Below, piece by piece: positions 6,001 to 28,316 of a stretch of DNA of 64,000 nt. Numbering within the stretch: the first letter of the stretch is position 1; every line of letters starts with the position of its first letter. Under the pieces are notes generated by a model that ran no database searches, was not told the origin of the DNA, and saw nothing but the letters and a program-made list of their open reading frames with translations. Position numbers and translations under genes: made by a program. This DNA is from Solirubrobacteraceae bacterium (GTDB lineage: Bacteria > Actinomycetota > Thermoleophilia > Solirubrobacterales > Solirubrobacteraceae). Location of the stretch: the NCBI GenBank assembly GCA_034665145.1, contig JAXDGI010000007.1, positions 20,356-84,355 on the forward strand, given 5' to 3'.

Positions 6001-9000
6001 TGCCGGGCTGGAAGGTGACGCCGGAGCCGAGCAGGTAGCGGAAGGTCCGCGTCCCGGTCATGTCGATCGCGTGGTAGAGCAGGTCGGGGTCGCTGATCCC
6101 GCCCGAGAATGAGGAGGCGCTGAGCACGACGACCTTGGCCAGGTCGGTCACCGTGTAGACGACGTGGCCATTCACCGTCTGGGAGGTGAGCTGGAGACCG
6201 ACGTGGGAGAAGCCGGTGGCGGTGGCCGCCGCGGCGAGCATGTCCGCGGCGTTGCCGTAGTGGGCAGCACCCGGGTTGAACGTCATCACCGTCTCGGTCG
6301 TCGGTCCGTAGCGCCACACCTGGTGGTTGGTCGTATCGAGGACGAGCGGGACCGAGATCGCCCCGGCGGCGAGGGTGATCGTCTCCATCGGGATCGGGCC
6401 CGACAGCGAGATCGTGCCGGTGATGGCGCTGCCGCCGATGGTGATGTGCGCGCTCGAGGCGAAGATCGAGGCGTAGTCGAGGTTGGCTCCGGTGGCGGCC
6501 GTGTAGGTGATGTCGATGTAGTGCTGGCCGCCCGTGGCATCGGTCTGCAGGCCGGGGGCGGCCGCACCCGTGCCGGCCGCGGTCGACGTGTCGGCGACGT
6601 TGACGTCGACTGCGCCGCCATCGGGAGCCGGGGCGCTGACCGTCGCTCCGGGAGCGGTGGTCGCCGCCGCGGGCGACTGCGCGGGAGCCGCGACATCGAA
6701 GGTGACGGGCTGGCCGGAGGAGTTGGCAAAGCCCATCTGCAGCTTGCCGTACAGGGTGAGGAGCTGGACCTGATCGGGAATGTCGGCCAGGAATAGGACG
6801 ACGACCTTGCCGCTGCTCACCTGGGACAGGTCGGCGTAGAGCTTGCCGCTGATCGAGACGTTGTTGTTGGCGAAGTTGAGCTTGCCCTCGATCATGAACT
6901 TGCCGTCGGTGGAGATCATGATCGTCACCTGGCCATTGAACAGCGCCTGCGACGTGTAGATCGAGTAGATCTCGGCCGAGCCGATGATCGTCATCGGCGC
7001 GCTGAAGGCGGCAAAGAAGTTCGCCTGGCCGCCCGTCGCCCGGGCCTGGGCGGCGACCTGCTGCTGAAGGCTGGTCAGCCACTGGCCGGCGCTCAGCTGC
7101 GTGGGCAGCCCGAACTCGGGATTGCGCAGCGCGAAGGGGTCGGTGATCGACGGCAGCGTCTTGAAGAACTCCACCCCGCCGGAGAAGTTGTTGATGGTCA
7201 GGCCGGTGTTGGGATCGAGCAGGATGCCGCCGGGGATCTCGACGTTGACGAACGCCTCCAGCGGGCCGAGCTGGCTGAGGCCGACCCGGAGCGTGAAGCC
7301 GGCCATGCCGCCGATCGAGAAGCCACCCTGCAGGCCCAGGTAGAAGACCCGGTGCGCGACGGTCGTCGTCGTGTCGGACGGATCGATGATGTTGTAGGCG
7401 CTGTCGAGCTTGAGGATTCCCCCGATCAGGCCGCCGTCGAGCTGGCCGCCGAACAGGTCGCCCTTGACGGTGACCCCGAAGGCGTCGATGCCGATGATGG
7501 GGAACTGGCCCTGGAGCAGCAGCGAGGGGTCGATCTGGATGCCCTGGACGGCGCCCGAGACCTCGAGGCCGCCCAGCCCCTGGATCCCGGTGACGCTGGC
7601 CGACAGGGTGAGGATGAAGTGGCCGGGGTCCTGGGAGATGTGGGGCCACTGGATTCCGATGCTGTCGATGCGGACGGGCAGGAAGGAGGGCCACTGGAAG
7701 GAGCTGCCGGTGGCCGAGCCGACGGTGAGGAAGACACCGAAGTTGCTGCCGGCCGAGAAGCTTCCGTCGCCGAGGAAGGCGAAGTTGCGGGCGGTGCCGG
7801 TGATCTCGAGCGTGCCGATCTTGACGTCGGCGCCCACGCTGGAGAAGGAGACGAGCGGATCACTGGCCCCGGCCCCGGTGTTGAGGTTGAAGTTGGTCGC
7901 GTTCAGCGTCAGGAACGAGCCGAGCGTGATCGACATCTGCGCAACGTGGAACTGGAAGGCGGCGACCTGGCCGTTGGCGCCGAAGGTCACGGTCAGGCGC
8001 AGCGCCTCGGTGTTGGGCGTTCCGTCGGTGTTGAGAGCGCCCGGCAGCGCGCTGATCGTGGCCGAGATGGCCTTGCCGGGCAGGAAGGTCGCGCCGCCCG
8101 AGGCGAAGTAGATCGAACCGGCGGTGACCGGGCTCGAGCCCGAGAAGCTCATCGAGAAGTTCTGGACGCCGACCCGGATGTCCTTGAAGGTGAGGATGTT
8201 GCCCAGTGACACGGCGTTGCCGCTGCCGGAGTTGGACAGCGGGTCCCCGGCCGGCGCGGCGACGCCGTAGTCCAGCTCGGCCTGGCCGAGGGTGAACCCG
8301 TTCTGGCGGATGACCAGGCCGGGGATGAGTCCGGAAGCGGTGCTGGTGGCCGACACGCTGTGTCCGGCGTGCGGGTCATAGGGCCGGATCGTGCCGGTGA
8401 GGTTGAAGGCGGGGAAGTTGATCGTGGCGCTGTTGATGACGACGAGCTGCTGGTCGGCGGGACCGGCGGGGTCGTAGGCGATGGCGATGCCCGCGGCCGA
8501 CAGGTTCAAGACGCCGGGCACGGTGGCGGTCAGCGAGGCGACGCGGAGGCTGAACTTGCCGGGCAGGTTGACGCGGAAGTTGCCGCTGAGCAGCCCGAGC
8601 GCGTCGACCTGGATGTCAAACGTGCCGAGGATCCCGGTGAGGTTGACGCTGACCCCGCTGGAGCTCTGCGCACCCGAGGAGCCTCCGAAGTTCAGCCCGG
8701 CCCGGTCGGCGCCCAGGGCGATGGTCAGGTTGAGCATCCCGTCCTTGAAGCCGACGTCGGCGATCGAGATCGTCGGGCCCTGGAGGCTGATCGGCCCGAG
8801 CGCGATCGTCCGCGGGCTGGTGCCGGCGCCGGGGGCCGTGGGCGAGATGGTGAAGGTCTGGATCTGGCCTCGCTGGTTGACGACCGGAGTCACCCCGGTG
8901 CCCTCATTGGTCTGGAAGCTGCCGGGCAGGAAGGTGAGGGTCACGGTCCCGGCGCCGAACAGGCCCGCGGCTGCGTTGCTCGCCGTCTGCAGGAAGTAGC

Positions 9001-12000
9001 GGTAGGTGACCGAGGTCGCGCCGGCGTCGGTGCCGGCGATGAGCAGCGGCGCCCCGACCAGCACCGGCGTCCCGTTGGCGTTGAGGCGCACGCCGATCAC
9101 GCCGGGTCCACTGAGCATGAAGGGAGCGGTTGAACTGAGCGTGGACTTGTCAATCGGCTTGCCGTCCATGCTGCGGTAGCTGATGTCGAGGTAGCCGGCG
9201 GTGTTGAGCGCGCTTGCGGTCACCGGCTGGCCGGGCGCCGGGTTGGCCAGCGCGGCGACCGGAGCGGCTGCGGCGTTGTCGGTGGCGACGAGCGAGAAGG
9301 TGTCGACCGAGCCGATGTCCTGGACGCCGCCGGTGCCAAACGCGCCGGGCAAAAACTGGACGCTGACCACGCCGGTGGCGTTGGTCGGGAAGCCGGTGAC
9401 CGTGTAGCGCCAGGTGTTGACCTGACCGGCGACGCGGGTCGGGGTGGTCCCGATGACCAGGCCGGGAACGGTCTGGCCGCCGATCAGCACCGAGAACTTC
9501 TGCGTCTGGCTCGTCGTCGGGTCCACCCCGGCGCTGTAGGCAATGTCGATGTGATCGAGCGGGTGGGTGGCCAGGGTCTGGTCTGACAGCGTTGCCCCGG
9601 CCAGCGGGTAGGCGACCGAGGCGGTCGGGAACAGCGCGGCGGTCTGGCCCGGCCCCGACGGGTCGATGCCCGACACGCCGAACACCGAGAAGCTGCCGAC
9701 GGAGAACGACGTCATGTGGAAGCCGGTGGCGGGATCGATCGTGAAGCTGGCGCTGCCGCCGATGCTGAACACCTGCGTCCCCGACACGGTGATGCTCATA
9801 CCGGCGTTGGAGATGGCCAGGGTGAGGGTTCCGCTTGCGGACCGGCTGACGGCCAGCGAGCCGTGGATGTCGAGCACCGAGCCCACGGTGAAATGGACGT
9901 TGGCGACGGTGAGCAGGAACGTGTAGGCGGGGACGAGGTCCGTCGTGCCGCCGGTCGGGCTCAGCGGGGTGGCGGTGGTGTTGATCTGGAAGCTGACCTG
10001 GTCTGCGGTGAGCGTGAGCCCGTCGAGGCCGACGAGGGCGAGCGCGCCCGTCGCTGACAGGACGTAGAGACCGTCGGCCTTGCCCGACCCCGGGGCAAGC
10101 CGGAAGGACAGCGTCGCCTGGTTGATGAGCAGGCCGATCGCGTTGGCGTTCGTGGTCCCGTCGGAGTTGGTGTAGGGGCCGCTGCCGACGAACAGCGACA
10201 GGCCCGTGCCCGAGAAGCTGTTGTTGGACAGGGCGAAGTTGCCCTTGATCTCGAGCAGCCCGCCGAGATTGAGGTTGACGTCCTGGGCGACGACCGCGAA
10301 CGTGGTGGCGGCGTCGATCTTGATCGGGATGGCCACCCCGCCGACGGTGACGACCTGGTCCACGCTGGTGCCCGTCGTGTTGACCTCGAGTCCGAGGTCG
10401 GCGCTGCCGATCGAGCCCGAGGCGGTGCCGAGCGCGATCCCGGCGATCCCGTAGCCGCCGCCGGACTTGGGCAGGACCACGAAGGCGCCGCGCGCGTTGG
10501 AGATCGGGCCGACCGAGCTCGAGCCGTTGAACGCGATGTGGGCCACGCCGATCTCCAGCGTCGGCGTCCCGGTGCCGCCGGCCGACGGCGCCGTCCTCGC
10601 ATACTGGAAGAAGAAGTCCCCGGAGACGGAGTTGCCGGCCAGGGTGACGGTCAGGGCGTCGGCCTCGACGCGAACGTAGGGACCGGCGGCGAGGCTCAGC
10701 GTCTGGGTGGCGGGGCCGCTGGCGCCGGTGTAGTGCAGCGTGTCGCTGACGGCCGAGCTGGTCGTGTTGAACTCGATGTTGAGCGACGTCGCCGCCACCG
10801 AGAAGCCGGGGATCTGGACGAACGGACTGCCGCTCAGCTGGCCGGCGATGCCGCCGGGCAGGAGCTCGAGCGCGCCGGACGCGTTGGTGATGGCGATGCC
10901 GGCCGCGCTCGCCGGCGGATTGACCGCCGTGAAGCCGGCCGTGCCGATGATCAGGCTCGTGTGATCAAAGCCGATGCTGACCACCTTGAGGCCGTTCTGG
11001 GTCGTGGTCTGCTCAAACCAGAAATGGGCGGTGAGGCTCTGGCCGAAGATGGTCAGGTTGACCGGGGCGCTGCTCGTCCCCGCCTCCACGCGGAGGTAAG
11101 GGCCGGCAGGGAGCGTGGTGCCGCCGGTGCCCGTGACGTCGGCGACCGGATTGATGGCCGCCGGGGTGGTGTTGAAGGCGACGGTGACCGAGCCGCTGAA
11201 GGTCAGATACGAGGCGAGGGCAGTACTCGGGGTGAGGGTGGCAGTCAGCTCTCCGGCCACACCGGTGCTGGTCAGCTCCACCGTGCCCGTGGTGATCGTC
11301 GCGGTGAGGAAGGTGGTCGTCCCGTTGCCGAGCGCGAGGCTGAGGTTTGAGACGGTGAGGTAGGCGATGTCGCGCACGGGGTCGCGCCCGACGGTCACAT
11401 CGCCGGTGAGCGTCTGGCCGGCGATCCCCAGCGTGATGCTGTGGCCGCTGACCACGTAGCCCGGAGCGAGCTGGCCCTGTGTCTGGCCGGTCGTGTTGAG
11501 GGCGACCGCGAAGGTGCCGCCGACCGTGACGCCGGGGATGTTGATGGCCACGCCGGCGGTGAGCGAGCCGTAGATCCCGGCCGAGGCGATGGTCAGCGTG
11601 CCGGCGGCGTCGGAGACCACGACGAAGGCGCGCTGGCTCGTGCCGATGCGCAGGCTGCCGTTGGCCAGGGTGACGACCGTCGTGTAGCTGCCCGTGGTCC
11701 CGGTCCGCGAGACGGTCAGGTCACCGGACAGAGTCTGGCCGCCGACGGTGATCTGCGCACCCTGAGCCGAGACGGTGAGGAAGTGGCCGGCGGGCAGCGT
11801 CAGCGTTTGCGTTGCCCCGCCGACGGTGAAGACCTCGTTGACCGCCTCCGGGGTTCCGGCCGACTGCAGCGTGTTGAAGGTGATCGTGACCGCGTTGACC
11901 GCGACGGTGGCCGCGCCGCCCAGGTTGACCGTCACGCCGCCGGAGAGCTGACCGGCCGTCCCGTCGGGGGTGATGAGCAGGAGCGCCGAGCCGCCCGTGA

Positions 12001-15000
12001 GCTGGGCCCCGGTCGTGCCCGTGCCGAGGAACAGGCCGACGTTGGTGGCGGCGATCTTGACCACCTTGCGGTCATCAGAGGTGTTCAGCCGCCCATCCGG
12101 GCCGGCGTCGGTGACCGACTGGAAGGAGAACTGCCCGGTGAGCGACTGGCCGAACAGTGTGGCCGTGAACGGCTGGGTGGTGGTGCCCAGCTGGGCCAGC
12201 AGCGAGCCGGGCGCGAAGGCAACGTCGATGGGAATGCCGGTGCCGAAGCTGATCTCGCTGGGCAGACCGTTGAAGGCGACCGTAGCGGCGACGTGGCCGG
12301 TCACGCCGCTGGGGGAGACCGTGAGGTCGCCGGTCCCCTGGGTGATGGCCAGGCCGGCGCTCGCCGAACCAAGCGTGATGGCCAGGTGGGCGAAGGTCAG
12401 GTGGACGGTGCGCGAGGCGTCGCGGCTGAAGGTCACGTCACCGGTCACCGATTGGCCGAGGACGCTCAAGGTCACGCCGGTGCCGCTCACCTTGACGTAG
12501 CTGTTCGTGCCCAGGGTGGTGTCGATGGCCACGCTCAGGCCGGCGGTCAGGTTGACCCCCGGCACGGTGACGGCGATCTGGCCGCTGAGTGAACCGGCCA
12601 GGCCCTTGCCCGTACCGGCGGCGCCGCCGGCGCCGGTGATCGTGAAGCTGCCCTGGCCCTGCGTGAGGGTGACGAAGTTGGTGGCGCCGTTGCCCAGCGC
12701 GAAAGTGACGTTGGCCGCGGTGAGGGTGTCGGCCGTCGCCGTATGGGCGAAGGCGAAATCACCGGTCAGGGTCTGCCCGAGAACGCTGAGCGTCACCCCG
12801 GTTCCCGACAGCTCGGTGTAGGGACCGGTCGGTAGGTCAAGCGACACCGACTGGCCACCGGCCGACAGTGACTCCTTGACCGGGGCGCCGGTCTGGTTGA
12901 CCGCGAAGGCGAAGGTTCCGTCCAGGGTCACCCCGGGGATCAGGTTGTGAAGATTGACAGTGCCCGACAGCTGGCCGGCGATGCCCGTGGGCAGGATGAC
13001 GAGCAGGCCCTGGCCGCCGGAGAGGACGGTCCCGATGGCGCTGCCAAAGCTGACGCTCACGCCGGTGGCGGCGAGGGCAATCTGGGTCTGGCCGGTCGAG
13101 CTGGTGATCTGCTGGATCGCGAAGGAGCCGCTGAGGGTGACCGCGTTGGCAATCGTCAGTGAGATAGCGGAGCCCGAGATCCCGAAGTACGGCCCGCCGG
13201 GGACGGTGCTGCCGTCACCGAGCAGCTGTGGCGCCGAGGTCGTGTTGATGGCGAGCGTCAGGGTGCCGGTCAGCGCGACCGGTCCGAGGTTCAGGCCCGA
13301 GGAGCTCGTGCTCACCGCAAGGTGGCCGGCGATCCCGCCGTTGGTGACGAGCAGCGAGCCCGAACTGATGGTGATGGGCGAGAGGCCGGTCAGCGTCACC
13401 TCGGCGTTGGTGACGGTGATCGACACGACCGAGCTGCCGTTGGCCTGGCTCTGGGAGAAGGCGAAGCTGCCGGTGAGCGTCTGGTCGAGGAAGGTGAGGC
13501 TGAGCGGGCTGCCGGTGACGGCCAGGTACCGGCCGGGTTCGTTGAGCGTCACGCTCTGGCCGCCCACGGTCATGGTCGTGTTGACGGCCTGGTCGGACGT
13601 GTTGAGCTCGAGACCGAGCGTTCCGGTCAGGGTGAGGTTCGGGATCGAGACGGTGACGCTGGCGGTCAGGGCGCCGACGAGCCCGGCAGAACCGCTGCCG
13701 AGGGCGCCGTAGGCGAGAGTCCCGGCCCCGCCGCTCAGAGTGAGCACCGGCGTGCTGGCGTTGCCGAGCACCATCGCGAGGTTTGAGACCGTCACCGCGA
13801 CGATGTCGGCGCCGCCGTGGATTCCGCGCTGGAAGGTGAAGTTCCCGTTCAGCGTCTGACCGCCGATGGCCAGCGCCACCCCGGTGCCCTGGACGAGGAG
13901 GTACGGGCCGGCGGGAACGTTGATGCTGACGCTCGACCCGCCGACCGTGAATTGCTGGTTGACCGCGGTCGCGGTGCTGTTGACGGCGAGCGTGAAGGTT
14001 CCGCTCACCATCGTCCCGAGCCCGGTCGGATCGACGGTCGCGGTGAGCGTGCCGGCGATCCCGCCGGCGCTGATGAGCAGCGCGCCGCTGGCCTGCGAGA
14101 CGCTCAGCTGGCTGCCCGAGGGCCCGATCGTCATGTGGCCGTTGGCCAGGACCACCTCGACCAGCTTCTGCGGGGTCGCCCCGGGTGCCGCCTGCGGACT
14201 GAGCGGGATCGTCACCTGTGAGAAGGAGAAGTCGCCCTGCAGGGACTGACTCCCGATCGTCAGCGTGGCCCCGGTGGCCGTGACCCGGAACAGGCCGGCG
14301 GCGAGCGAATCGGTGCCGACGGTCTGGGCGGCCGTCGTCGTGTTGATGGCCAGGGTGGCGGCGATCCCCGAGCTGAACAGGCCGGTTGCCGCGGCGGTGA
14401 CCTGGGTGCTGAGCTCGCCGTAGACGCCGGCCGCGCCGAAGGCGAGCTGGCCCGAGGTGATCGCCACCGAGACCCCGGAGCTGCCGCTGCCCAGCGCCAG
14501 GATCAGGGCGCTGCCCGAGGGGACGCTCGTGCCGAGCAGGATCTCGAGGTGGGCGGGAACGGAGCCGGCGGCGTCGACGTAATGGAAGCCGATCGCCCCG
14601 GTCAGAGACACGTCGCCGAAGGCGAGGGTCAGATTAGTCCCGTCGATGATCGACGTCGTGTCGGCGATCCCGAACTGCGGGGTGCCCGTGTTGTTGAACG
14701 ACACTGTCGCGGTGCCCGAGAGCTGGAGGCCCGGCACGCCGACAACCTGAACCGTGCCTGTGGCCGAAAGCGCGTACTTCCCGCTGGATGGATTGGTGAA
14801 CTGGTAGGGCTGGGTGAGCGTGAGGTAGACGCCGTGCGCGGTCGGGTTGATCGTGGCGCCGCTGATGAAGGCCGGGCCCTGGCCGAGGAAGACGATCATC
14901 GTGCCCGACACGCTGTGCGTCCCGGAGCTCGCGTCGAAGTTGCCCTCGATCTCGACGACGTTGCCGATGTTGATGATCCCCGAGCCGGCGACGTCCATGA

Positions 15001-18000
15001 ACGGGGACCCGCTGGAGTTGATCGCCTCCGAGGAGGAGAAGGTGATCGGCAGCGTCACCCCGGCGACGGTCACCGTCTCGTCGACGGAACCGTGGGTGTC
15101 GTTGACGCGGACCGAGACATTGGCGCTGGCGTTGAAGCCGCCGGTGCTCGTGGTCGCGTTGACCGTCCCCGAGAAGACCCCGGCGAAGCCGCCGTTGATG
15201 AGAACGAGCGCGCCCTGGGCGGTGAGGCTGACCGGGTCAGCCGCCTTGCCGGTGTCGGCGGAGGAGTTGCCGGTCACCGAGGCGGTGACGTTGGTGAAGC
15301 CGATCCGCGTCAGCGGGACCGGTGTCCCCTGATACAGCAACGCTCCCGAGCTCGCGTTCTGCGCGACGAACAGGTCAGGCTGGCTTGAGCCGGTCAGACT
15401 CGTGAGCAGGACCGCCGTCGGGGTGACCGTGCCGGTGCCCGTGACCACACCGGCCTTGAACTGGCCGGCGGAGGTCGCGGCGGCGCCCCGGTTGAGGTAG
15501 AGCAGCGGACTTCCGGCCGCCGTGCCGAGCACGAGGTCGGGCAGTCCGTCGCCGTTGACGTCCCCGGTGGCCAGGGCGACCGCGGTCGAGGCCGCCCCGG
15601 AGGCGGTGCTCAGAGTCTGGGCGGAGGCAAAGTTTTGCCACGTCGTGCCCGTGCCGTAGCCGCGGTTGAGGTAGACGTAGCTGGCGCCCGTGCTGCTGGT
15701 CACGACGAGATCGGGCAGGCCGTCCCCGTTGACGTCCACGGCGGCCAGGCCGGTCACGGTCGGGGTCTCGGAGCCAACGGCCGCGGCCCCGCCCAGGCCC
15801 GGCCACAGAGTCGAGACGACGGCGGACCCGGGGGGCACGTCGTTGGCGAAGCTGCCCAGGCCCGTGAAGGTGTTGCCGCTGATGTTGGCGTAGCTGATGG
15901 TCTGTCCCCCGACGAGCAGGCTCCCCGAGTTCGGGAAACCGGTGGTCGAGGCCACGGTCATCGTCGTCGAGGTGTGGCCGAGCGTCGCCGACAGCGAGGT
16001 CTGAGGACTGGCCTGGTTGAGATAGAGCTTTGTCGTGACCCCGGTGCCGCCGATGATCACGTCGGTGAGGTGATCACCGTTGACGTCGGCCAGCGCGACT
16101 GCTGTCCCGCCGTTGCCAAGCCCGACGCTGGAGAGCGTGAACGCCCCAGCGCCGTTGCCCAGGTAGAGGTGGTTGGCGATGCCGGCAACCACCAGGTCAG
16201 AGTTGCCGTCGCCGTTGAGATCACCGACGGCCACGGCGGCGGCGCCCGGGGTCGATGTGCTGCTCGCCGCCGTCGTGGCAAAGCCCTGCCACTGCGACGG
16301 CGTGACCGTGGCGCCGAGCAGCTCGGTGATTGAGCCGGTGGGGAAGGTCAGGCCGGTGAAGCTCTTGCCGTCACTGCCCAGACCGGAGTAGCCGACGAGG
16401 TCGCCGCCGACCCCGCCAACGAGCAGGTGGCCCTGCTGGTCAAAGCCGGCGGTCGAGGTCACCGTCATCGTCAGGGCGCTGGTCAGCAGGGCGCCGGTGA
16501 GCGCGGTCGACGGGCGCCCCTGATTGAGGTAGACGCTCGTCGTTCCCGCGGTGCCGCCGGTGGCGACGATGAGATCGAGCAGGCCGTCGTGGTTGATGTC
16601 GGCCAGGGCAACGGAGGTGATGGGGGCGGTGGCCGTACCGCTGATCGTGGGCAGCAGGTCCGAACTGGCCGGGGCGAAGCCCAGCCAGCGGCCCGACGCA
16701 TCCTTGCCCTTGTTGAGCCACAGCTGGGCTGGCCCCCCGGTGACGGCGAGGAAGACGTCGGGGAACCCATCGCCGTTGACGTCGCCCGAGGCGATCGCGG
16801 TGACGCCGGCCGCGGTCGGAACCAGCGCCGTGCCGTAGGCGGTCGAGGCGAAGCCCGGCTGGCTGGACTGATCAAAGGCGAAGCTCCCGGTCATCGTGAC
16901 GGCGCCGGCGACGGTCAGGGAGGCGCCCGTGGCGGTCACCGAGACATCCGGGCCGGCGGGGACGTCAATCGTCACGCCCCCGACCGTCTGGTTCACGGCG
17001 TGGGTGCCGGTGTTGATCTTGAGATCGAGCCCGGTGGCGCTGAAGCTCGCCCCCGGCACGTTGAACGTCGTGCTCGGGATGCTGCTCGCCGTGAACTCGG
17101 CGGCGACGCCGTTGCCATCGATGATCAGCGCGCCCGCCACGTTGTCGGCGGCGGTGATGTTCACGTAGGTGGTGGTGCTGGTACCGAGCCTGAGGGCGAG
17201 ACCGGTGATCGCCGCCTTGACCACCGTGTGGCCGTCACCGGCTGTCGTCCTCGTCAACGTGACACCCGTGGCCGAGATCGACTGGCCGGCAATGGTGAGC
17301 GTGGTCGGGTTGCCTCCGGTCAGGTCAAAGGTGTTGGCGGCGAGCGAGCCCTGCGTCACCTTCGTCGTGTTGAAGTCGATCGTCAGCGGACTCGTGAAGC
17401 TGAGCCCGGGCACCGTGCTGGCCACATCCCCCGTGAACGAGCCGTAGATCCCGCCGTCCTTGGCACCGGGTGTCGTATTGCTGATCAGGCTCAGCGAGCC
17501 GCCCCCGTTGGTGACCGAAAGGAAGTTTGTGGTTCCATCGCCCACGTTGAGGGCGACGTGGTCGAAGGTGAGCGTGAGCACGCCCGTCCCGGCGGTGAAG
17601 GTGAAGTTGCCGCTCAGGGTCTGGCCGCCGGCGGTGATCGTGACCCCGGTGCCGCTGACCTGGAGATAGTGACCGGAAGCCAGTGACAGCGCGAACGGCG
17701 TCGGTGAGCCGGGCTGCGGAACGAGGGCCGAGATCGCCTGATTGGTCGAGTTGACGACGAGGCCGAAGGTCCCTCCGAGCGAGACCCCGGGGATGTTCTG
17801 CAGCGAGACGGCGGCGGTGAGCCGGCCCGCGATCCCGACCACTGCGGGCTTGGTCGGGGTCGCCGTCTTGGCCGGCGTGTTGATGAGCAGCAGCTCGCCG
17901 CTGATGCCGGTCAGGGTGAGGAAGTTGACCTTGCCGTCGCCCAGACCGAGGGTGCCGTTGGCGATGGCGATGGCCACGGCCTTGGGATCGTCGGCGTTGC

Positions 18001-21000
18001 CCGGGATCCCGTCCTCGCCGGGGCCGGTAGCGACCTGACTGAGCGTGAAGTCACCGCTGATCGTCTGGCCGAGCGCGCGCAGGGTGGCGCCGATCGCCTC
18101 GAGGCTGAGGTAGGGGCCGGCGGGCAGATCGAGGGAGAGAGCCTGGCCCCCGACGGTGAGGCTCGTGGCCACAGCCGTCGAGCCGGTGTTGATGGCCAGC
18201 GTATAGGTGCCGGTGAGCGACACGCCGAGCGAGGGGTCGAGCGAGAGCGAGGCGCTGAGCGTGCCGGCGATCGCGCCGGCGCTGAGCTGCATCAGGCCCG
18301 ACACGCCGGAGGCCGAGACCGCTCCGCCGATGAGGCTGAGGGCACCGTTGCTGATTCCGATGGTGAGCACCGAGGCGCCCGCACTGTCCTTCGTGGCAAC
18401 GAGTGCGAGGTTGCCGGTCAGCTGCTGGCCGAGGATGGTGAGGGCCGCTCCGGTGGCGTCGAGGCGCAGATAGGGCCCGGCGGGTAGCCCCTGAGCAGCC
18501 GCGCCGGTCGTGTTGACGTCCAGCGAGAACGTGCCCGAGAGCGCGACGCCGGGCACCGGCGCGAGGACGACGGACATCCCGATCGAACCGGCGATGCCGG
18601 CGCTGGAGATGACGAAGGTTGAGGTGGTGGCCGACTGGGTCGCGGTCAGAATCGGTGTCCCGGTGCTGCCGCCGAAGGCGCCGCTGAGGTTCGCGGTCTG
18701 GATCTGCAGCTGCGGGGCGCCGCCCACGATCTGGCGGCTGACGGTGATGTCGCCCGTCAGGGTCTGCCCGAGGATCGTCAACGACACGCCGGTTCCCGCG
18801 ACCTGCACGAACGGACCGGGAAGCAGGGCCAGGTCAACCTGCGTGCCGCCGACCGTGAAGCTGTCGATCAACGCCGCCCCGGTGTTGACCTGCAGGCCCA
18901 GGGTGCCGGTCACGGTGACACCGGGGACGGTGAGGGCCACCGCGGCGGCGAGCGTGCCGGCCACCTGCCCGGCGTCGACGAACAGTGCACCGGTGACGCC
19001 GGTGATGGAGAGTGGGCTCGAGCTGCCGCCGAGCACGAGGGAGCCATTGGCGACCCCGAGCTCCAGGATCGTGCCGGCGTTGTGCGAGGTGACCTTCTGC
19101 ACAGCGAAGTCGCCGGTCAGGGTCTGTCCGCCAACGGCGAGCGTGGCGCCCGTCGCCTCCAGGCGTAGGTAGGGACCGCTCGGGACGTCAAGGGCGACCG
19201 TTGTCGTCCCCACGGTAAAGCTCTGGCTGACTGCGCTCGTCGTCGTGTTGACCTGCAGGACGAAGGTTCCGGAGAGCGCAGCGGCGGTCGGCAGGGTGAG
19301 GCCGACGTTGCCGCTCAGCGAGCCGGCCACGCCGCCCCCGGTCAGGAGCAGAACACCCTGGCCGCCGGTCAGCGAGGCGGTCGCGCCCGAGCCACCGAAG
19401 CTCAGCGCCACGTTGGCGGCGACGATCGTCGTCGCGGTGGACCCGTCGGGCAGCGTCGCGTTCTGGATTGAGAAGTCCCCAGTCAGCGTCTGGCCCAGGA
19501 TGGTGAGGGTCGTCTGGCTGCCGGTCACCCGCACGAAGGGGCCGGCGGGGAGATCGAGCACGACGGTCTGACCGCCGAGGGTGACCGAGCTCGAGACCGG
19601 CGCGACACCTGTGTTGATGGCCAGCGCGTACGTCCCGCCGAGCGTCACGCCGGGGACCGAGACCCCGAGCGTGCCGCTGATCGTGCCGGCCAGACTGCCC
19701 GCACCCATCTGCAGGGTCCCGGCGGCGCCGGTGATGGCCACCGCCCCCGAGCCGAGCGACAGGCTGACGCCGGTGGCGGTGATGGCCAGCCCGGCGCTGT
19801 CGGTGCTGAAGGCGAAGTTGCCGTTCAGGGTCTGGCCGAGGAGACCGAGCTGGCCGCCCACGAGCTGGACCGAACCGGGGTTGGGACCGGCGAAGGTCAC
19901 AGCGACTCCGGGGCCGCTGGAGCTCGGGATGGTCAGCGTCTCGTTCAGCACCTTGCCGGTGTTGTTGAAGGCGACGGTCACCGTGCCGGTCAGGGTCAGC
20001 CCGCTCACACCGAGCACGGTCGCCGTGCCCGCGGCGACAAACGCGTAGGTCGACCCGATCTGGATGAGCCCGACCTGGGCGCCGCTGATGAGGATGCCGG
20101 TGGCCAGCGGGTTGGGCGCACCGCTGGCCAGTGTTCCCGGACCCTGGCCCAGGAACACGCTGAGGCCGTTGCCGGCGAAGGCCTGGGCCGCGGCGCCGTC
20201 GGCGAGCGTGTAGCTGCCCGCAGAGACGTTGCCCTGAATCGTGACGAAGTTGCCGACGTTGAAGGTGAGGCCGTCGATCGAGAGCCTGAAGTACGGCGTC
20301 TCAGACTGGCCGAACTGAACCTCGATCGGCTGGCCGCCGACGGTCACCGTGGTGTCGATGGTCCCGCCGGTTGTCGGGTCGTGGATCGTGTTGACCCGGA
20401 GGACCGCGTGGCCGCCGACGGTCACCGAGCTCGAGCCGCCGGTGACCGTCGCCTGGAGGACCCCGGCCGCGCCTGTGGCGGTGAGGACCAGCGCGCCCGA
20501 TCCGTTACTCAGCGTCGCGCCGCCGGCCGAGGCCGAGACGTTGGCCGCCGCGATCACCGTCTGGGCGCTGCTCCCAGTGCCCTGGCGCGAGAAGGTGAAG
20601 TCGCCGTGCAGGGTTCCGCCGGCCAGGCCGAGGTCCACCCCGCTGGCGGTGACGCTGACGTAGGGGCCGGCCGGCAGGGTGAGGGTCGTGGTGCTCGAGC
20701 CGATCGTGAACGGCTCGGTCACGGCCGTCGGGATCGTGCTGATCGCCATCGAGTAGGTGCCGACGCCGAGGGTGACACCGGACGGGAGCGAGAAGGTGAC
20801 GCCCGAGATCGACATCGCACCGGCGATCCCGGCGCGGGTGATGAGGAGCTGGCCCGTCCCGTCGGCGACGGTGACGGCGCCACCGCCGAGGCTGAGCAGC
20901 ACGCCCTCGCTGCTGCTGTTGCTGAAGGCGACCTTCAGCGCCGGGGCGCCCGTGGCGTCGGTGCCGCGCTGCAGGACGAAGTCGCCGCTCAGGATCTGGC

Positions 21001-24000
21001 CGGCCACCGTCAAGGTGGTCCCGGTGCCCTCGATGGCCAACAGCGCGGACGCCGGATGGGTGTCGATCGCGACGGTCAGGCCGGTGCCGAAGGCGATCCC
21101 CGGGAGGCTGGTGGCAACCGTGGCGGTCAGGTTCCCGGCCACCCCGGCCGAGTCGACCGTGAGGGTGCCGGCCGCGCCGCTGACCGTGACCAGACCGCCG
21201 CCGAGCGACAGGGCACCGTTGGCCAGTGTCACCATGGTGGCGCTGCTCGTCGTGCTCAGGGTGACGTCCCCGGTGATGACCTGATCAAGGGCGGTGAGGG
21301 TGACGCCCGTGCCCGCGACGCTGATGTAGCGGCCGGTGGGCAGGGCCAGCGTGATCGGGGTCCCGCCCAGCGCGAAGACATCGTTGACCGGACCATTGGT
21401 CTGGTTGAATTGGACGGTGAGTGCGCCGGTCAGGGTGAAGCCGGGCACATGGAGAGTCAGGGCCCCGCTGGCCGTCCCGGCGAGCCCGGCCGAGCTGACG
21501 AGCACGGCCCCGCTGCCGTGACTGAGGGTGGCGATGCCGCCGCCGATGGTCACGTTGAGGTTGGTGACCGCGGCGATGACGATCGGCGCGCTGCCGGCGT
21601 CGGTCGTGCGCTGGAAGCCGAAGTCGCCGGTCAGCGTCTGGGTGCCGACGGTCAGCGTGGCCCCGATCAGCTCAGCGCGCAGGTAGGGGCCGGCGGGGAG
21701 GTCACCGACCGCGGCCGGGGTCGTGTTGATCGCCACCGAGATCGTGTTGGCGGTGAGGCCGGTGAGCGGGCTGGAGACGAGGTGGGCGCTGAGCGAGCCC
21801 GCCACCCCGGCGCTGGTGACGGTCAGCGAGCCAGCGATCGTGTCCAGCGAGAGGAAGGTCGTCGTCCCGTCACCGACGGTCAGCGTGGCGCCGGCGACGG
21901 TGAGGACGGTGGTGGTGACTCCGGCCGTGGTCGACCGCTGGAGGGTGAGGGTGCCGGTGAGGCTCTGGGCGCCGATGGTGATCGTCGCGCCGCCGGCGGT
22001 GAGCGAAAAGAAGTTGCCGGCCGGGACGGTGGTGGGCTGGCCGCCGATCGTGAAGCCCGGGGTGGCCTGACCGGTCGTGTTGAGCAGAAGGGTGAAGGTG
22101 CCGCTCACCGAAGCACCAGGGATGGTGACCGCGACGGTCCCGCTCAGTCCGCCCGCTACGCCCGCGGCCGAGATCTGCAGCTGGCCCGATCCGTTGGTCA
22201 GCGTGGCCAGCGGGGGTCCTCGCGAGCTGACGTTGCCGTTGCCGTCCGAGAGCGAGACGGAGGCGTTGGCGATCGTGACTGAGATCGTGCCGGCGGTATC
22301 AGTGAGGGCGAGGTCACCCGTCACCGTCTGACCGAAGACGTTGAGGTTGAGGCCGAGGCCGCCCACCGAGACCGACGGCGCGGTGGCCGTGGCCACGTCC
22401 TGGCTTCCCTGGAAGACAAGCGGCAGCGAGGTGCCCGAGCCGGGCAGGGCGACCGTCTCGTTGAAGGTGTTCTGGAAGGCGTTGATGCGCACGCGGCCGG
22501 TCCCCGAGGCGCTGACGCCGTTGGTCCCCACCAGGGCGACGGTGCCCGAGGCATCCAGCGCGTACTTCCCGCTGTTGTCGGTGAACAGGACGACATTGGC
22601 GTTGGTGATGAGTAGGCCCACGGCCAATGGGTTGGTGTCGCCGTTGGCGAGCAGACCGGGGCCGTTGCCGAAGAAGACGGTGAGCCCGCTGCCGGCAAAC
22701 GTGCTCCCGTGCAGACCGTTGGAGGCGACGACGCCGTCGGTGAGGCTGACGCTGCCCGACAGCCAGATCGAATTGCCGATCTGGATGGTCAGGTCCGAGA
22801 TGGAGACGCTGAACAGGTTCCCCTGACCAGACCCGTAGTCGACCGTGAGCTGCTTGCCCCCGAGGCTGACCGTGGCGTTGATGGCCGCGCCGGTGGTGTT
22901 GATCTGGAGGATCACGTTGCCGCCGGCGGTGAAGCCGGAGCCACCCACCGCCGCCGTCCCCGACACGTAGCCGGCAATGCCGGGATGGGCGCTGTCGGTG
23001 GAGACCACGATCAGTCCCTCGCCATCGGAGACGGTCGGCGAGGAGGCGCTGCCCAGCCAGACCGATACGCCGCTCATCCCGACGATCGTGGTCGTTGCGC
23101 TGGCCACCGACTGCTGCTGGAAGAGAAAGCTGCCGGCCAGCGAGCCGACGGTGTTGCTCGTCCCGGGGGTGATGACCGCGGTCTTGGGCACGGTCACCGC
23201 GGCCTGGATATAGGGCCCGGCTGCAATCGCGGTCGTGTCACCGCTCACCGTCACCGGAGCGCCGGTCGTGTTGACCTGGATCTTGGCCGTCAGACTTCCG
23301 CTGGGCGCGAACCCGGGGAGGGCCACCGTCGCGCTGGCGCCGATGTCAGCGGCGACACCCGCCGAGCTCAGTTGCAGGGACCCGCTGGCGTTGGTGATCT
23401 GCAGGTAGCTACCGAAGCTCAGCGCGACCGCCGAGCCGGTGATGGTCACGCCGCCACCGCCGGCGGCCAGCGTGAACGTGCCGCTCAGGCTGGCCGAGCC
23501 GACGGTCAGCACCGGAGTGGGCGCGGTCCCCGAGACGGCCATGGTGAAGTGACCGCCGGTTCCCGAGCTGGGCAGCGAGACGTCGCCGGTCACGGCGCCA
23601 CTGGCCGTGATGCCCGGGACCGCCAGCGTCAGTGCCGACGCGCTGAAGCTGCCGTGGAATCCACTGGTGGTATCGGCGGCGAGGGTGGCTGAGCCGCCGG
23701 TGATGGAGGCCAGGCCGCCGCCGAGCGCAGCGGCGACATTGGTCAGGGTGAGGGAGACGCCATTGCTCGACGGTGTGACGATCACGTCGCCGCTCAGCTG
23801 CTGTCCGAGCAGGGCGACGGTGATGTCCTGGCCGCTGAAGTGCGAGAACGGAGTCGTACTGCTGGCCGCCCCCGGGACGTTGACCGTATAGGCGCCGGCG
23901 CCGACCTGGATCTGGCGGGCGACCGGGGTGGTCTGGGTGTTGCGCTGGACGCCGACCAGGCCGGTGAGCGTGACGCCTGGCAAGCCGGTGAGCGCCCCGA

Positions 24001-27000
24001 GACCGCTGGCCTGCAGCGTGTAGGAGTGGTCGGGCTCGACGACGAGGCCAAGGCCCGCGCCGCTGACGGTGAGCTGCGTCCCCGTGCTCGGACCGATCGC
24101 GACGAGCACGCCGGTGGCCCCGATGAGCAACTCTGTCGCCCCCGACGGCCCCGTCCCCGGACTCCTGGCCACGGCGAAGTTGCCGGCCAGCGAGAACCCG
24201 CCGACGGCGAGCGTCACGCCGGTGCCTGTGAGCGCGGCGGCCCCGGCCACGACCGGCGCCGTCGTCGCCCCGGCTTCAGGCAGGGTCACGTCAGAGCCCG
24301 TCGTGTTCAGCTCGGCGCGGAACGCGCCGGTGAAGCTCAGGTCGGAAACGTTGACGACGGTGGCGTCCCCCTCAGCGCGCATGGCGAACGTGCCGTTGGG
24401 CTCGAGCACGAAATGGGCGAAGGCGCCCGAGCCGCCGAGTTGGAGACCAACGTCCTGGGCCGAGCTGGACCCGCGCTGGCCGAGGAACAGAGACGCGCCC
24501 GTCACGTCGATCGTGGTCAGCTGGCTGGCCAGGTCGCGCGTGAAGGTGAAGGCCCCGGTCACATCGCCGAGTGGAGTCTGGAGCGTGGGCGAGCCCGTGG
24601 CCGTGAGGGTCGACACGGGGACGTCGGCGGACGGGGTCGTGAAGTGAGCGATCTGGCTGCTGCTTGTGTTGATGCTGATGCTGAGCGTGAGCGCGCCGTT
24701 CAAGCTCAGGGGCGCGAGCAGAGCGGGCAGCGCGCCCGAGACCGTGCCGGTCGCGGCGAACGTGCCATCGGCGTTGATCTGCGCGGCGGCCGAGACGGAG
24801 GTGCCGGTGATCGAAACGGCGATCGCCGAGCCCGAGCGCGAGAAGCTCAGCGCGCCGCTGAGATCGAGGAAGGCGGGGAGCTCGAGCGCCCCGTTGCCGG
24901 CGATCGAGAAGGACGGCGTGGCCGTGGTGGTGTCAAAGGCGACGGCGAGCGACGCGACGAGCGTGAGGCCCGGGACGCCCACCAGCCGGGCCGCCCCGGT
25001 CACCGAGCCGCTGGCGCCTGTTGTTCCCGTGGTGAGCGTCCCCACCGCGCCGGTCACCGTCACGGCGGCTGAGCCGGCGGCGATCTGGGCGCTCGCCCCG
25101 GTGGCCGCGACGGTGAAGGTCGCGCCCGAGACGGTGAGCGCGAACTGGCCGTTGAGGGCGCCCACGGCGCCCAGCGTGAGGGCGGCGGTGCCGCTCAGCG
25201 ACGTCCACGGGCCGGTCACTCCGGTGGGCTGGGCCATGGCCAGAACGACGGTTCCGGCCCCGGTGTCGATCGTCACCGGCGCGGCCGAGAGATCGCCGAG
25301 ACCGTCGTAGGCGGCGTGCCATCCGGTCCCGGTCAACGTGAGTGAGCCGGCGCCCGCGACGGCCACGTCACCGGTGGCAAGAACGGCGAATGTGGGACTC
25401 CCGCCCGCGTCGGGAGTGCGGGCGACCAGACCGAGGCTGGCGTTGCTCAGCGATGCCGTCGGGCCGCTGGTCCCGGCGGTGAGGGTCGCGCTGACGCCCG
25501 TCGCGCCGAGCGTGGTCTGCATCGTCGTGCCGTTGTCGGAGTAGGTGACCTTCAGGCTCGAAGCGCTGAGCGTCACGAAGTTGCGGATGCTGATGCTCGG
25601 CGAGGCCAGCGTGACGGTCAGGGTGCCGGCGGTCGCCGCCTGGCCGGCCAGCGTGTAGGTGCCGGTGACCGTCCCGAAGGTTGCGTTGAACGGTCCGCTC
25701 GTTCCGGTGTCGATACCCCCGCCGCTCGAGCTGATGGTCACCGTGCCGGCGAACCGGGTGTTGGCCCCGGTGCCGGTGATGCTGATGTTCGAGAAGCTCA
25801 GGGAGGGAGCGCCGAGCTCGAGCACCCCGCCGATCGTGAGGTCGCTGGGCGCGGTGATCGTCGTCGTTCCCGTGAGGGCGCCCGACACGTACTGGTTGAG
25901 CTCGGTCTGGACGAAGGCGAGCAGGTCGGAGAGCGGGCTGCTCGCGGTGAAGTAGGTGGAGAAATGCGGCAGCCCGGCGCTGACGATGCCGGTGCTCGGG
26001 TTATAGGCCGAGGTGATGGCGACGGGTGCGCCGGCCGGCGGGAGGTAGTAGATGCTGGGCGAGGCGGCGCCCTGGGCGACCGTGATGGACAGCTGAGGAG
26101 CGACCGCGAACTGCTCGATGAGGGCGCCGGTCACGGTGTCGACCGCGGTGAGGTCGTAGGCGGAGGACAGCGCGTTGAGCCCGGCCACGGAGACGGTGGA
26201 GACGGTCACACTGACCTCGGCGTCGTGCGGCAGGCTGCCGGGCGCGAAGGTCAGGGTGGCGTTGCCCGCACTGATCGAGCCGCCTTGCGCGGCCAGGATC
26301 AGAACAGGTCCATAGGTGACGGGGGGTCCTCGGGCGCCCAGCGTTCCCGAGTATGTGGCGCTCACACCTTGCAAGGCGCCGGCTGACGAGGTGGCTCCGA
26401 CGCCCGGTGGCGTCGCCGCGGTGGCCTGGGTCAGGTCACCGGCGCCCGCGGACGGGGCGGCCCCGGCGGCGCTGGGCACGATCCCGGCAACGGTGCTGGG
26501 AGCCGGCGCGCCGCTGCCCGCGGTGGGGCTGCCGGACACGGCGACGTTGGCGGCGGCGAGCAGGGCCGGGTCGGCGCCGCTGCCGTCAAGCGCGGTGGAG
26601 CCAGCGCCGGCGTTGCCGGTGGCCGCGCCGACAGCGCTCAGTCCGGCGGTGACGAACGTGCCGCCGGTGGTCGCGGCGGCGAGCTCGATGGCCGGCGCGC
26701 TGAGGGCGCCGGTCATGGCCGGAGCCGCGGTGGGCGCTTCGGTGGCGGCGATGGTGGCGACGGCGGCGCTGCTCTGCACGCCGGCGGTACCGCTGTAGGC
26801 GATGTTCGATGTGCCCGCGGGCTCCGCCGTCGAGCCGCCCGAGGCCCCCGAGCCGCTGCCGGTGATGGTGGCCGGCCGCGGAGTCACGCTCGCCGACGAC
26901 GAGCCGGCCGAGTTCGAGCTGTCCGTGCCGTTCGACCCGCCGGTGGTGCTCGAGCCGCTGCTGTCAGCGGGCGGGGCGCTCGGCGATTGTCCGCCGCCGC

Positions 27001-27307
27001 CCGTGGGCGACGAGCCCGAGCCCGACGGACTCGACGGACTCGACGGACTCGACGGCGAGGAGCCGGGCGGCACGGTGGCCACCTGCGGCGCGACGGTCGC
27101 GCTCGCCCCGCTGCTGTCGGCGCTGGTCGAGGCGCCGCTCTGGATCTGCTGATCGGTCGGGGAGGGCGGTGCGCTGATTTGCGAGGAGCTCGGGTCAGCC
27201 GGCGCGGCGGTACTCGTCGGACTGCTGGTGGAGACCGGAGTGCTGTCCGAGCTGGGGGTGGCCGCCGGTGTGTCGGTGGCGGCGGGCGTCGGGGCCGGGG
27301 TGGGGGT
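1..27307 (-). CDS. Giant repetitive surface/secreted protein (adhesin-like), at least 9,102 codons, 3' end outside the window
   Basis: The minus frame with codons ending at positions 2 mod 3 translates to coherent G/T/S/A/V-rich beta-type protein wherever I translated it. The ORF track has no minus-strand ORF terminating in this frame between 1 and 27307, which implies no internal stop. The long plus-strand ORFs in register with it are antisense shadows. Confidence 0.95.
645..1040 (-). repeat. RTX/hemolysin-type Ca-binding-like Gly-rich nonapeptide repeats
   Basis: GSAGNDVF, GGGGSNSI, GGSGQNII, YGGGGPDVIFGGNTSDTIHGGNGNETITG, GSGSNKVYL, TGGSGPDVLYI. Confidence 0.75.
3860..9600 (-). repeat. 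About 9 Ig-like repeats with (Y/W)(I/L/V)D(V/I)x(F/Y) and (Y/W/F)R(Y/F) motifs, in two blocks (9600-8870 and 6530-3860)
   Basis: DHIDIAY ~9550, GYLDISY ~9190, HYIDITY ~6515, NWIDVVF ~5805, TYLDVQV ~5125, GYIEITF ~4730, IWVDVTY ~4395, TWVDVAL ~4085, each followed by a YRY-like motif. The Ig fold is an inference. Confidence 0.7.
9900..25500 (-). repeat. Array of about 30-35 protein-level beta-rich repeats of ~115-125 aa, interrupted by the FG-GAP block
   Basis: Recurring landmarks LPAGP(Y/F)LR and GQTL(T/S)G(D/N)F; examples near 19540, 19170, 18810, 18470 and 18110 give a period of ~340-370 nt. The count is approximate. Confidence 0.85.
15365..16810 (-). repeat. FG-GAP/VCBS beta-propeller repeats (six clear, one degenerate)
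   Basis: DVNGDGFPD 16783, DINHDGLLD 16600, DLNGDGNSD 16222, DVNGDHLTD 16087, DVNGDGLPD 15736, DVNGDGLPD 15562, degenerate LTGSSQPD ~15395; most are followed by an (L/V)(Y/W)LN-type strand. Confidence 0.9.
25949..26290 (-). other. ZU5-like domain ending in an HFS autoproteolysis motif
   Basis: GGSISAGNATLTFAPGSLPHDAEVSVT...AYDLTAVD...IYYLPP...GIVSAGLPHFSTYF; HFS codons at 25966-25958. Confidence 0.75.
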
Positions 27308-28165
27308 CTAAGCCGTGCTGGGGGCCGGGGTCGGGGCCTCGGGCGGGGTGCCCCCGGGCACGGGCGCCGGCGCGGGTGACGGGCTGGAGGCCGAGCTCGG
27401 CGTGCTCGCCGGCTCGGCGCTCGAGGCGGCCGGGGCGAGGTGGGCGCGACTCAGGTGGCTGGTCGAGTTGGTCGCACTGGTCACGGTGGTGCCGGGGCCG
27501 CCGTTGACGGTCACAGTGGGAACCGGCGTGCCCGACGGCGCCGGCGCGCCCGCGCTCGGGGCGGGCACGACAACCGGCGGGGGAGGGGTCGGCAGTGGCG
27601 GCAGTGGCTGCGTGTTGACGACGATCGGCGCGGCCGAGAGGGCGTGAGCAAGTCCGCCGATCACACCCGAGGCGGTCGTCGGAGCGGTGCTCGTGGGGGC
27701 AGAAGTGAGCGAGTACGAGCTCCGCTGGACGGGGATCTGCTGGCGGGTCACCCGCCGTGCGCCGGTCTGGCGGACGAGGTGGCGGGTTCCGGCTGACGGG
27801 GTCAGGCGCCGGCTGGCCGATGCCGGGCGGCTCGCGCTCCCCGTCCCGCCGGCGCCTGCGCCGGCGCCGGCCTGGCTTGGACCAGACCGCCTCCGCGCGG
27901 CGTGTGCGGCCTTCGGCACGGCGAGCACGGGGAAGCGCACCGCCGGAAGCACGACGTTCGGCAGCGGGGTGACGACGTCGGGCGGGTTCAGAGCCGCCTT
28001 GGCCGAGGCGGTGGCCAGAGCCGCATACGGGAGGCAGAGGGCGAGCAGGCCAACGACCCCGAACCAGAAACGGTTGCGGCGGGAGGCGAGCACGCCGAAG
28101 CTCGGCGTACGGGCGGCGCCGGAGGTGGTCGCTCCGGCGTATGCGGGCATTCGAAGAATGTTCAT
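27308..28165 (-). CDS. Signal-peptide-bearing Pro/Ser/Thr/Ala-rich N-terminal segment, in frame with the giant ORF and ended by TAG at 27310-27308
   Basis: RRNR-FWFGVVGLLALCLPYAALA-TASAKA resembles a Sec signal or N-terminal anchor. In-frame ATGs occur at 28189, 28165 and 28150, so the start is uncertain. The low-complexity linker continues seamlessly past the TAG. Confidence 0.75.
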   Translation of the reverse strand: MNILRMPAYAGATTSGAARTPSFGVLASRRNRFWFGVVGLLALCLPYAALATASAKAALNPPDVVTPLPNVVLPAVRFPVLAVPKAAHAARRRSGPSQAGAGAGAGGTGSASRPASASRRLTPSAGTRHLVRQTGARRVTRQQIPVQRSSYSLTSAPTSTAPTTASGVIGGLAHALSAAPIVVNTQPLPPLPTPPPPVVVPAPSAGAPAPSGTPVPTVTVNGGPGTTVTSATNSTSHLSRAHLAPAASSAEPASTPSSASSPSPAPAPVPGGTPPEAPTPAPSTA

Positions 28166-28287
28166 TACGGCATCGTCGCCAGCCGGCATGGTGCCGGTCC
28201 AGGCGGCCCTACGGCGAGGCTTGGGCCCCCAAGCTTTGCCCCAACTGTCGAGAGGACGGTCCCTGCGCCCTCGCGACGACCCCGGCA

Positions 28288-28316
28288 AAGTGACAGAGCG
28301 CGTACCCCCCTGTCAA
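28288..28316 (-). promoter_or_regulatory. Putative sigma70-type promoter of the giant gene, with an overlapping inverted repeat
   Basis: Perfect TTGACA at 28316-28311; 18-nt spacer; CACTTT preceded by TG-N (extended -10-like). TGACAG-N13-CTGTCA palindrome spans 28315-28291. Confidence 0.45.

Follow-up and report, generated by a model that had tools for sequence, protein, structure and literature searches.

How is a surface fibre of ~11,000 residues joined to the cell that makes it, and how could it leave again? The question is raised by a 64,000-nucleotide stretch of DNA from a Solirubrobacteraceae bacterium (GenBank assembly GCA_034665145.1, contig JAXDGI010000007.1, positions 20,356 to 84,355 of the forward strand; the whole stretch is hereafter called the window). 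It belongs to contig C7, one of 299 contigs in a 4.4-Mb assembly with a guanine-cytosine (GC) content of ~70%. Translation of the window revealed a single enormous open reading frame (ORF) on the minus strand, running from 27082 to the window start. An initial annotation, made from the sequence alone, had placed a ZU5-like domain with an HFS motif at the base of the encoded protein and suggested that it is a self-cleaving tether. Our analysis favours a divergent autoproteolytic ZU5 domain that forms the base of a giant fibre on the surface of a soil actinobacterium resembling Solirubrobacterales, a reading to which we assign a probability of about 0.6.

Fold and HFS motif of the domain near the N-terminus

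In the whole contig, the stop of the giant ORF lies 6.2 kb past the window start. The protein has 11,098 residues from a GTG at 27082, which is residue 1 in our numbering, or 11,173 residues when counted from the preceding stop. All features of the protein described here are on the minus strand. Near the base of the protein the translation reads ...AQGGSISAGNATLTFAPGSLPHDAEVSVT...GIVSAGLPHFSTYFTASS, with GGSISAG beginning at codon 267 (26284) and LPHFSTYF finishing at codon 378 (25949). The peptide quoted in the initial annotation, including LPHFSTYF, is found there exactly. The motif (25958..25966) consists of H373 (25966-25964), F374 (25963-25961) and S375 (25960-25958), the last being the predicted nucleophile. 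The predicted scissile bond, F374↓S375, lies between 25961 and 25960, which is the place originally annotated (~25961). A cut at this bond would leave a body of 8,653 residues within the window, in keeping with the annotated figure of over 8,600, and of 10,724 residues in the full contig.

The domain spans residues 252-384 (25931..26329). Modelled by AlphaFold2 with an alignment of homologues (model m26a939d2e692), these 133 residues form an all-beta domain of ten strands with a predicted local distance difference test score (pLDDT) of 96.7 and a predicted template modelling score of 0.89. A longer construct of 216 residues (maa6c0fbb789b) reached a pLDDT of 86.6 overall and of 92-98 across the core. 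We compared the domain-only model with the PDB using Foldseek, and nine of the top eleven matches were ankyrin ZU5, GAIN or NLRP1 FIIND structures (probability 0.99-1.0, template modelling (TM) score 0.52-0.67). The ankyrin ZU5 matches were 3kbu_C (E 5.5e-4, TM score 0.67), 3f59_D, 6m3p/q/r and 3ud2; the GAIN matches were those of CD97 (9mqr_A, TM score 0.67) and BAI3 (4dlo_B, TM score 0.52); and the FIIND match was that of rat NLRP1 (7crw_A, TM score 0.56, probability 1.0). An axonemal chain, 8j07_k3, was also within the top eleven. Lower-ranked matches had probabilities of 0.5-0.8 and TM scores of about 0.3, except for two more axonemal chains. The 216-residue model gave the same list.

At the level of sequence, a domain from another actinobacterial genome (L011) was found by the family profile A2 (E 5e-7) and scored 25.4 bits on the Pfam ZU5 model (PF00791), for which the gathering cutoff is 21. 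Since the best structural matches are ZU5, GAIN and FIIND domains and L011 reaches the Pfam ZU5 threshold, a fold unrelated to ZU5, the outcome that the initial annotation had named as contradicting its proposal, is not what we found. That annotation had also pointed to ZU5, GAIN and Nup98 structures as the ones to compare; ankyrin ZU5 and GAIN were indeed top matches, whereas Nup98 was not within the top 50 for either model. We conclude that the window domain very probably has a ZU5 fold and that, as modelled, it belongs as a divergent member to the ZU5 superfamily as Zhang et al. 2012 defined it, with ZU5, GPS and the Nup98 domain included (PMC3482391).

The HFS tripeptide occurs twice in the giant protein, compared with 0.41 occurrences expected from shuffled sequences, and is by itself not beyond chance. 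The second copy lies in the repeat body (TPFSHFSGQDI, about 23840-23842, residue 1081) and is probably a chance occurrence. To follow the motif through the family, we used a HMMER search with a 183-residue segment against 1.84 billion representative proteins, which yielded 99 homologue clusters at 50% identity, 60 of them with E <= 1e-10 and most from soil Actinomycetota. HFS was present in 71 of the 75 clusters that cover the site, the four exceptions being RFS, HSS, HFR and RFR, and nearly all matches covering the site read L-P-H-F-S-x-[Y/F], with the aromatic residue at +2 conserved across homologues. In an alignment of 34 sequences (to 29% identity) the invariant columns were two Gly, Phe, two Ala, Gly and Tyr in addition to H, F and S, and HFS was invariant in alignments A1 and A2. 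Remote relatives, detected with the family profile in further genomes from the phylum, carried HFS or HFT and, once, HAT. Judging by these sequences, the +1 residue in remote relatives varies solely between Ser and Thr, both of which are hydroxyl nucleophiles.

In the domain-only model, HFS sits in a short loop that joins strand 115-119 to strand 125-130, the final pair of the sandwich. The second of these is TYFTAS (25940..25957), assigned as a strand by DSSP with a pLDDT of about 98. Because it forms when the domain is modelled alone, it is paired within the sandwich, and its place in the domain sheet fits that of a strand which would be retained after cleavage. The HFS or SFS sites of PIDD, Nup98, CARD8 and NLRP1 are found at the C-terminal edge of the sandwich, ahead of a long strand (PMC3210808), and autoproteolysis of FIIND takes place between ZU5 and UPA and requires a catalytic His and Ser (PMC8081665). 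In the model, the location of HFS matches that given for ZU5-type cleavage sites in their published description. Unlike the tripeptide alone, the conservation and position of the motif are beyond chance.

Layout of the N-terminus and predicted cleavage

The frame upstream of GTG 27082 is the same as that of the ORF at 27311-28288, and one TAG separates the two. This TAG (27308..27310) is codon 334 of the joint frame and the sole stop in it. The probable true N-terminus (28001..28165) starts at ATG 28165 (MNILRMPAYAG...) and continues with an Arg-rich stretch, SRRNRF, and a hydrophobic segment, FWFGVVGLLALCLPYAALATA (28001-28069), followed by A-S-A↓K. According to a hydropathy scan, FWFGVVGLLALCLPYAALATA is the only transmembrane-like segment of the whole locus; by its sequence it could be either a signal-anchor or a cleavable signal peptide. 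Between it and the domain lies a low-complexity linker of ~557 residues (26330..28000), inside which the TAG falls. The linker is rich in Pro, Ala, Ser, Thr and Gly and carries short conserved juxtamembrane motifs such as PPDVVTPLPNVVLPAVRFPVLAVPK. If FWFGVVGLLALCLPYAALATA were removed, attachment would be via these motifs or via the basic C-terminal tail of the protein.

Full N-termini of homologues were available from two orthologues only, L001 and L002, most metagenomic homologues being fragments at contig ends. These two come from long contigs of metagenome-assembled genomes, one assigned to Solirubrobacterales (80% identity over the domain) and one to Actinomycetota (67%). Both share the N-terminus described above and have a single uninterrupted ORF with the transmembrane segment, a linker of ~570-700 residues, the ZU5 domain and the giant body; the TAG is absent. 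The continuous ORFs indicate that the ancestral order was anchor (or signal), linker, ZU5 and body.

By analogy with characterised autoproteolytic sandwiches, we infer cleavage of the window domain, continued association of its two chains and their release by force or signal. The domain would fold outside the cell, after export, and the buried Phe374 would strain the backbone. The hydroxyl of Ser375, aided by His373, would then attack the carbonyl of F374 in an N-to-O acyl shift, and the resulting ester would be hydrolysed. The predicted products are a fragment of ~734 residues, which would comprise the anchor, the linker and the ZU5 sandwich, and a body with STYFTAS at its new N-terminus. As the STYFTAS strand is part of the ZU5 sheet, the chains would most likely remain joined by non-covalent contacts and come apart only on extraction of the strand or unfolding of the sandwich. 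The fibre would thereby have a detachable rather than a covalent joint at its base.

The steps of this scheme differ in how firmly they can be held. Self-cleavage of the domain at the F↓S bond is probable. Lasting association of the cleaved chains as a tether, with its rupture put to use in force-triggered shedding or as a fuse, is a tentative proposal to which we give less than even odds. Still more speculative, and on balance unlikely, is that a fibre of micrometre scale has, in this cleaved joint, a mechanical fuse or sensor at its base. In that case, load on the 10,724-residue body would extract the STYFTAS strand, so that the fibre is shed ahead of any damage to the membrane, and the emptied ZU5 domain with its linker might be exposed as a signal. 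Such a device would be a bacterial counterpart of the mechanochemistry of adhesion G protein-coupled receptors (GPCRs) and their GAIN domains, with inverted topology.

A ZU5 autopeptidase at the base of large bacterial surface proteins is a class already predicted by Zhang et al. 2012 (PMC3482391). According to their prediction, large toxins and surface proteins of bacteria are cut at the base of the filament by ZU5 autopeptidases at the N-terminus, and they also mention such ZU5 domains in large surface proteins with adhesion modules (PMC3482391). Like the proteins they describe, the giant protein is a very large secreted or filamentous bacterial protein with a ZU5-superfamily domain near its N-terminus. 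Most of their examples contain SpvB, beta-propeller and RHS modules and a C-terminal toxin, whereas the giant protein contains beta-helix, FG-GAP and RTX elements; with neither RHS repeats nor a recognisable toxin domain, it does not qualify as a polymorphic toxin. The motif also differs, being CxH for the superfamily in Zhang et al. 2012 (PMC3482391) and H-F-S in the window family, and the window subfamily is not picked up by the Pfam ZU5 model. What is particular here is the combination of a divergent subfamily invisible to the Pfam ZU5 model, H-F-S in place of CxH, a host protein of ~11,000 residues that is neither an RHS protein nor a toxin, and a long disordered linker leading to the anchor.

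The FIIND of NLRP1 and CARD8 and the ZU5 domains of PIDD share with the window domain a ZU5 sandwich with [H/S]-F-S at its C-terminal edge, before a long strand, and Ser as nucleophile, and their fragments remain associated after cleavage (PMC8081665, PMC3210808). Sequence identity is about 11%. NLRP1, CARD8 and PIDD act in cytosolic animal signalling, and their ZU5 is followed by UPA and death-fold domains. In contrast, the window domain is predicted to lie outside the cell, with a helix and a beta-helix after it, and no Pfam match to UPA or a death domain was found in scans of the giant protein. The autoproteolytic domain of Nup98 has the identical H-F-S with a buried Phe and a Ser nucleophile (PMC3210808). 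Unlike the window protein, Nup98 is a nuclear-pore protein and is cleaved at the very C-terminal end of its domain.

Resemblance to GAIN is confined to the beta-sandwich part, subdomain B, of CD97 and BAI3. As in the GAIN domains of adhesion GPCRs and polycystin-1, cleavage would take place in a turn ahead of the last strand, this strand would stay embedded, and a huge adhesive part outside the cell would be held non-covalently to one anchored in the membrane. Unlike GAIN, the window domain has a low-complexity linker upstream instead of the helical subdomain A, contains no Cys and hence no GPS cysteines, and has the motif HF↓S rather than HL↓T. Moreover, its topology is the inverse of that of GAIN, in that the sandwich would remain on the fragment next to the membrane and the strand would leave with the shed part. 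Remote relatives such as L009 do show the GAIN-like order of domain and then transmembrane helix. Among bacterial extracytoplasmic domains, SEAL has been shown to autoproteolyse, according to a 2023 PNAS report (PMC10556640), which also describes that eukaryotic SEA domains associate non-covalently after cleavage and need mechanical force to separate. SEAL is the nearest experimentally shown bacterial analogue, and the resemblance is functional only: SEAL has an alpha/beta SEA fold, another motif, of the G↓S type, and a role in regulated intramembrane proteolysis. The window model is all-beta, and SEA structures were absent from its Foldseek matches.

Competing readings

Several observations weigh against autoproteolysis at the base of a membrane-held fibre. 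Many ZU5 domains, such as those of ankyrin and UNC5 and including our best structural matches, do not cleave. A Pfam scan of the first 1,200 residues of the giant protein and of the window domain yielded no match, and a scan of 34 homologues yielded one weak ZU5 match (E 0.05). Sequence searches of the PDB with phmmer and profiles, using the domain, A1, A2 and the L011 domain, returned nothing meaningful. In the present assembly the TAG parts the sole hydrophobic anchor from the ZU5 domain, and cleavage of a signal peptide at A-S-A↓K may leave the N-terminal fragment without a hold on the membrane. Finally, the open-access literature yielded computational statements on bacterial ZU5 cleavage only, and no bench test of it was found. 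The PDB searches also listed REC102 (through a coincidental PHF..Y), antibody V domains and phosphatases, which we dismissed as chance matches (all E >= 0.02).

The alternative that survives best, although we regard it as somewhat unlikely, is that cleavage serves one-way release or maturation. Anchor and linker would then be an export leader, and the body would be freed at once to the wall, an S-layer-like coat or the medium, with no lasting tether and no regulated shedding. Immediate release is what Zhang et al. 2012 proposed (PMC3482391). The body has candidate attachment elements of its own, namely RTX repeats and a very basic tail of the KPKKHK type, and the Lys/Pro/His-rich tail could possibly hold it after release. 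However, fragments stay associated after cleavage in FIIND and, as far as we are aware, in every characterised ZU5 or GAIN case. In addition, the strand that begins at +1 is integral to the modelled sandwich, with the high pLDDT given above, so that spontaneous dissociation should be slow.

We consider it improbable that the ZU5 fold is present without cleavage, its role at the base of the fibre being structural or one of binding, for example by docking to a partner or the cell wall. Packing would in that case explain the retention of HFS, with Phe in the core and His and Ser in a tight turn. The top structural matches are non-cleaving ankyrin ZU5 domains, the Phe at this position is structural in all ZU5 domains (PMC3210808), and cleavage of the window domain is itself a prediction from analogy. 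However, non-cleaving ZU5 domains do not retain H-F-S, UNC5b having Leu at the Phe position (PMC3210808). Furthermore, H and S are conserved as strongly as F across the 75 clusters, and the only substitution at +1 in remote relatives, Ser to Thr, keeps the nucleophile.

Similarly unlikely is that the gene is broken in this genome. If the TAG is real, the giant ORF has no export signal and its ZU5 domain would be left over in a pseudogene, or the body would not be made. In favour of such a break, the TAG is the only stop in frame and the reading frame does not change across it. Neither a signal peptide nor a transmembrane segment occurs downstream of the TAG, and the family is scattered, with no member in the sampled genomes of the same genus, as frequent gene loss would predict. 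In contrast, a 33.5-kb open frame with no other stop or frameshift argues against long-standing decay, and the orthologues L001 and L002 are intact at the TAG position. An assembly error is also plausible, as the TAG lies in a low-complexity stretch of 76% GC and the short-read Logan contigs from four independent soil metagenome runs, which match perfectly at the flanks, all break within 27197-27316; these contigs neither support nor refute the TAG. The weakest alternative, that HFS is a chance feature of an ordinary Ig-like or beta-sandwich spacer, draws on the low weight of the tripeptide count taken alone and is effectively refuted by the retention of HFS in 71 of 75 clusters, by structural matches that are specifically to ZU5, GAIN and FIIND and not to Ig, and by the Pfam ZU5 match of the remote member L011.

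If cleavage by the window ZU5 domain is confirmed, it would provide bench-tested bacterial ZU5-type autoproteolysis, of which we found no case in the open-access literature, and would locate it at the base of a protein that ranks among the largest recorded in bacteria. The prediction made in 2012, that bacteria share the self-cutting sandwich known from animal PIDD, NLRP1/CARD8 and adhesion GPCRs, would gain support, and the 133-residue domain would be a simple model for the chemistry of that sandwich. Irrespective of this, the analysis defines a family of at least 99 clusters that is unnamed in current databases, and a hidden Markov model built from A2 would annotate its members. The consequence for the source genome is modest and concerns how a giant fibre could join, and leave, its anchor.

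Body, distribution and neighbouring genes

Downstream of HFS, the 216-residue model shows a helix and then beta strands that lead into the repeat body. The helix is amphipathic (PLSDLLAFVQTELNQYV, 25886..25936; residues 139-155 of model maa6c0fbb789b, pLDDT about 80-85) and joins the domain to the first turns of the beta-helix. Helices of this type (SPLDGL..I.PLLQQYLADA, as in the window) are confined to one subfamily of homologues, and other homologues have a beta segment instead (..WTITLD....HTV.V). With two downstream types, the module that receives the ZU5 strand is not fixed.

The part of the body that lies within the window (2..25885) is rich in Gly, Thr, Ala and Ser and consists of beta-helix-like repeats, with an FG-GAP propeller around 15.4-16.8 kb. 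RTX nonapeptide repeats follow near the C-terminus, beyond the window (C7:14143-20355), and the protein ends in a 50-residue tail rich in Lys, Pro and His, with KPKKHK-type sequence (KPKPKPKKHKPKPKKHKAKPKKHK...). This tail may bind wall polyanions or extracellular DNA. Over all 11,173 residues, Pfam recognised only FG-GAP and RTX repeats; a match to TcdB_toxin_midN inside the FG-GAP region (E 0.003) was below the cutoff of that family. A toxin domain was sought at the C-terminus, where RTX repeats were all that we found. The hydropathy scan detected no transmembrane segment downstream in the body, and the C-terminus of the giant protein carries no sortase signal. A sortase is encoded at 58.8 kb, and we rejected a link to it, as the body has neither a C-terminal sortase signal nor a transmembrane-like segment.

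The source genome contains one copy of the ZU5-like domain. Among 401 sampled genomes of the phylum the domain was present in 11, and those sampled from the same genus or family all lack it; we conclude that the gene is accessory and patchily distributed. Homologues are named 'hypothetical protein', 'beta strand repeat-containing protein' or 'large repetitive protein', with no Pfam domain recorded at this place.

The remote relatives vary in what surrounds the domain. Three of them (L006, L007 and L015; G049:C31, G034:C10) are tandem paralogues of about 600 residues that end about 15-20 residues past HFT, with tails such as ...ATALPFTGR and ...TTMPFTGN that are LPxTG-like, but no hydrophobic tail follows. 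L009 (G392:C26, match 1501-1875) is a 467-residue protein whose ZU5-like domain contains …TIAHFSYYIVV…; about 20 residues past the domain come a C-terminal transmembrane helix and an Arg-rich tail, the GAIN-like order referred to above. By its sequence, such an order would correspond to an ectodomain cut just outside the membrane. In L010 (G326:C20) and L011 (G220:C1), the ZU5-like domains, with HFT or HFS, are immediately followed by several CxxCH motifs, an arrangement that suggests multihaem cytochromes which cut themselves free of an N-terminal part.

The giant gene is followed immediately downstream, at C7:8663-14117, by four genes on the same strand whose products are exported. One product is collagen-like, with G-X-Y repeats and a signal peptide, two are secreted paralogues and one resembles a lipoprotein. 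The two paralogues have about 460-480 residues and start with (A)D(D/T)FLPH.... These four exported proteins may be accessory factors of the fibre.

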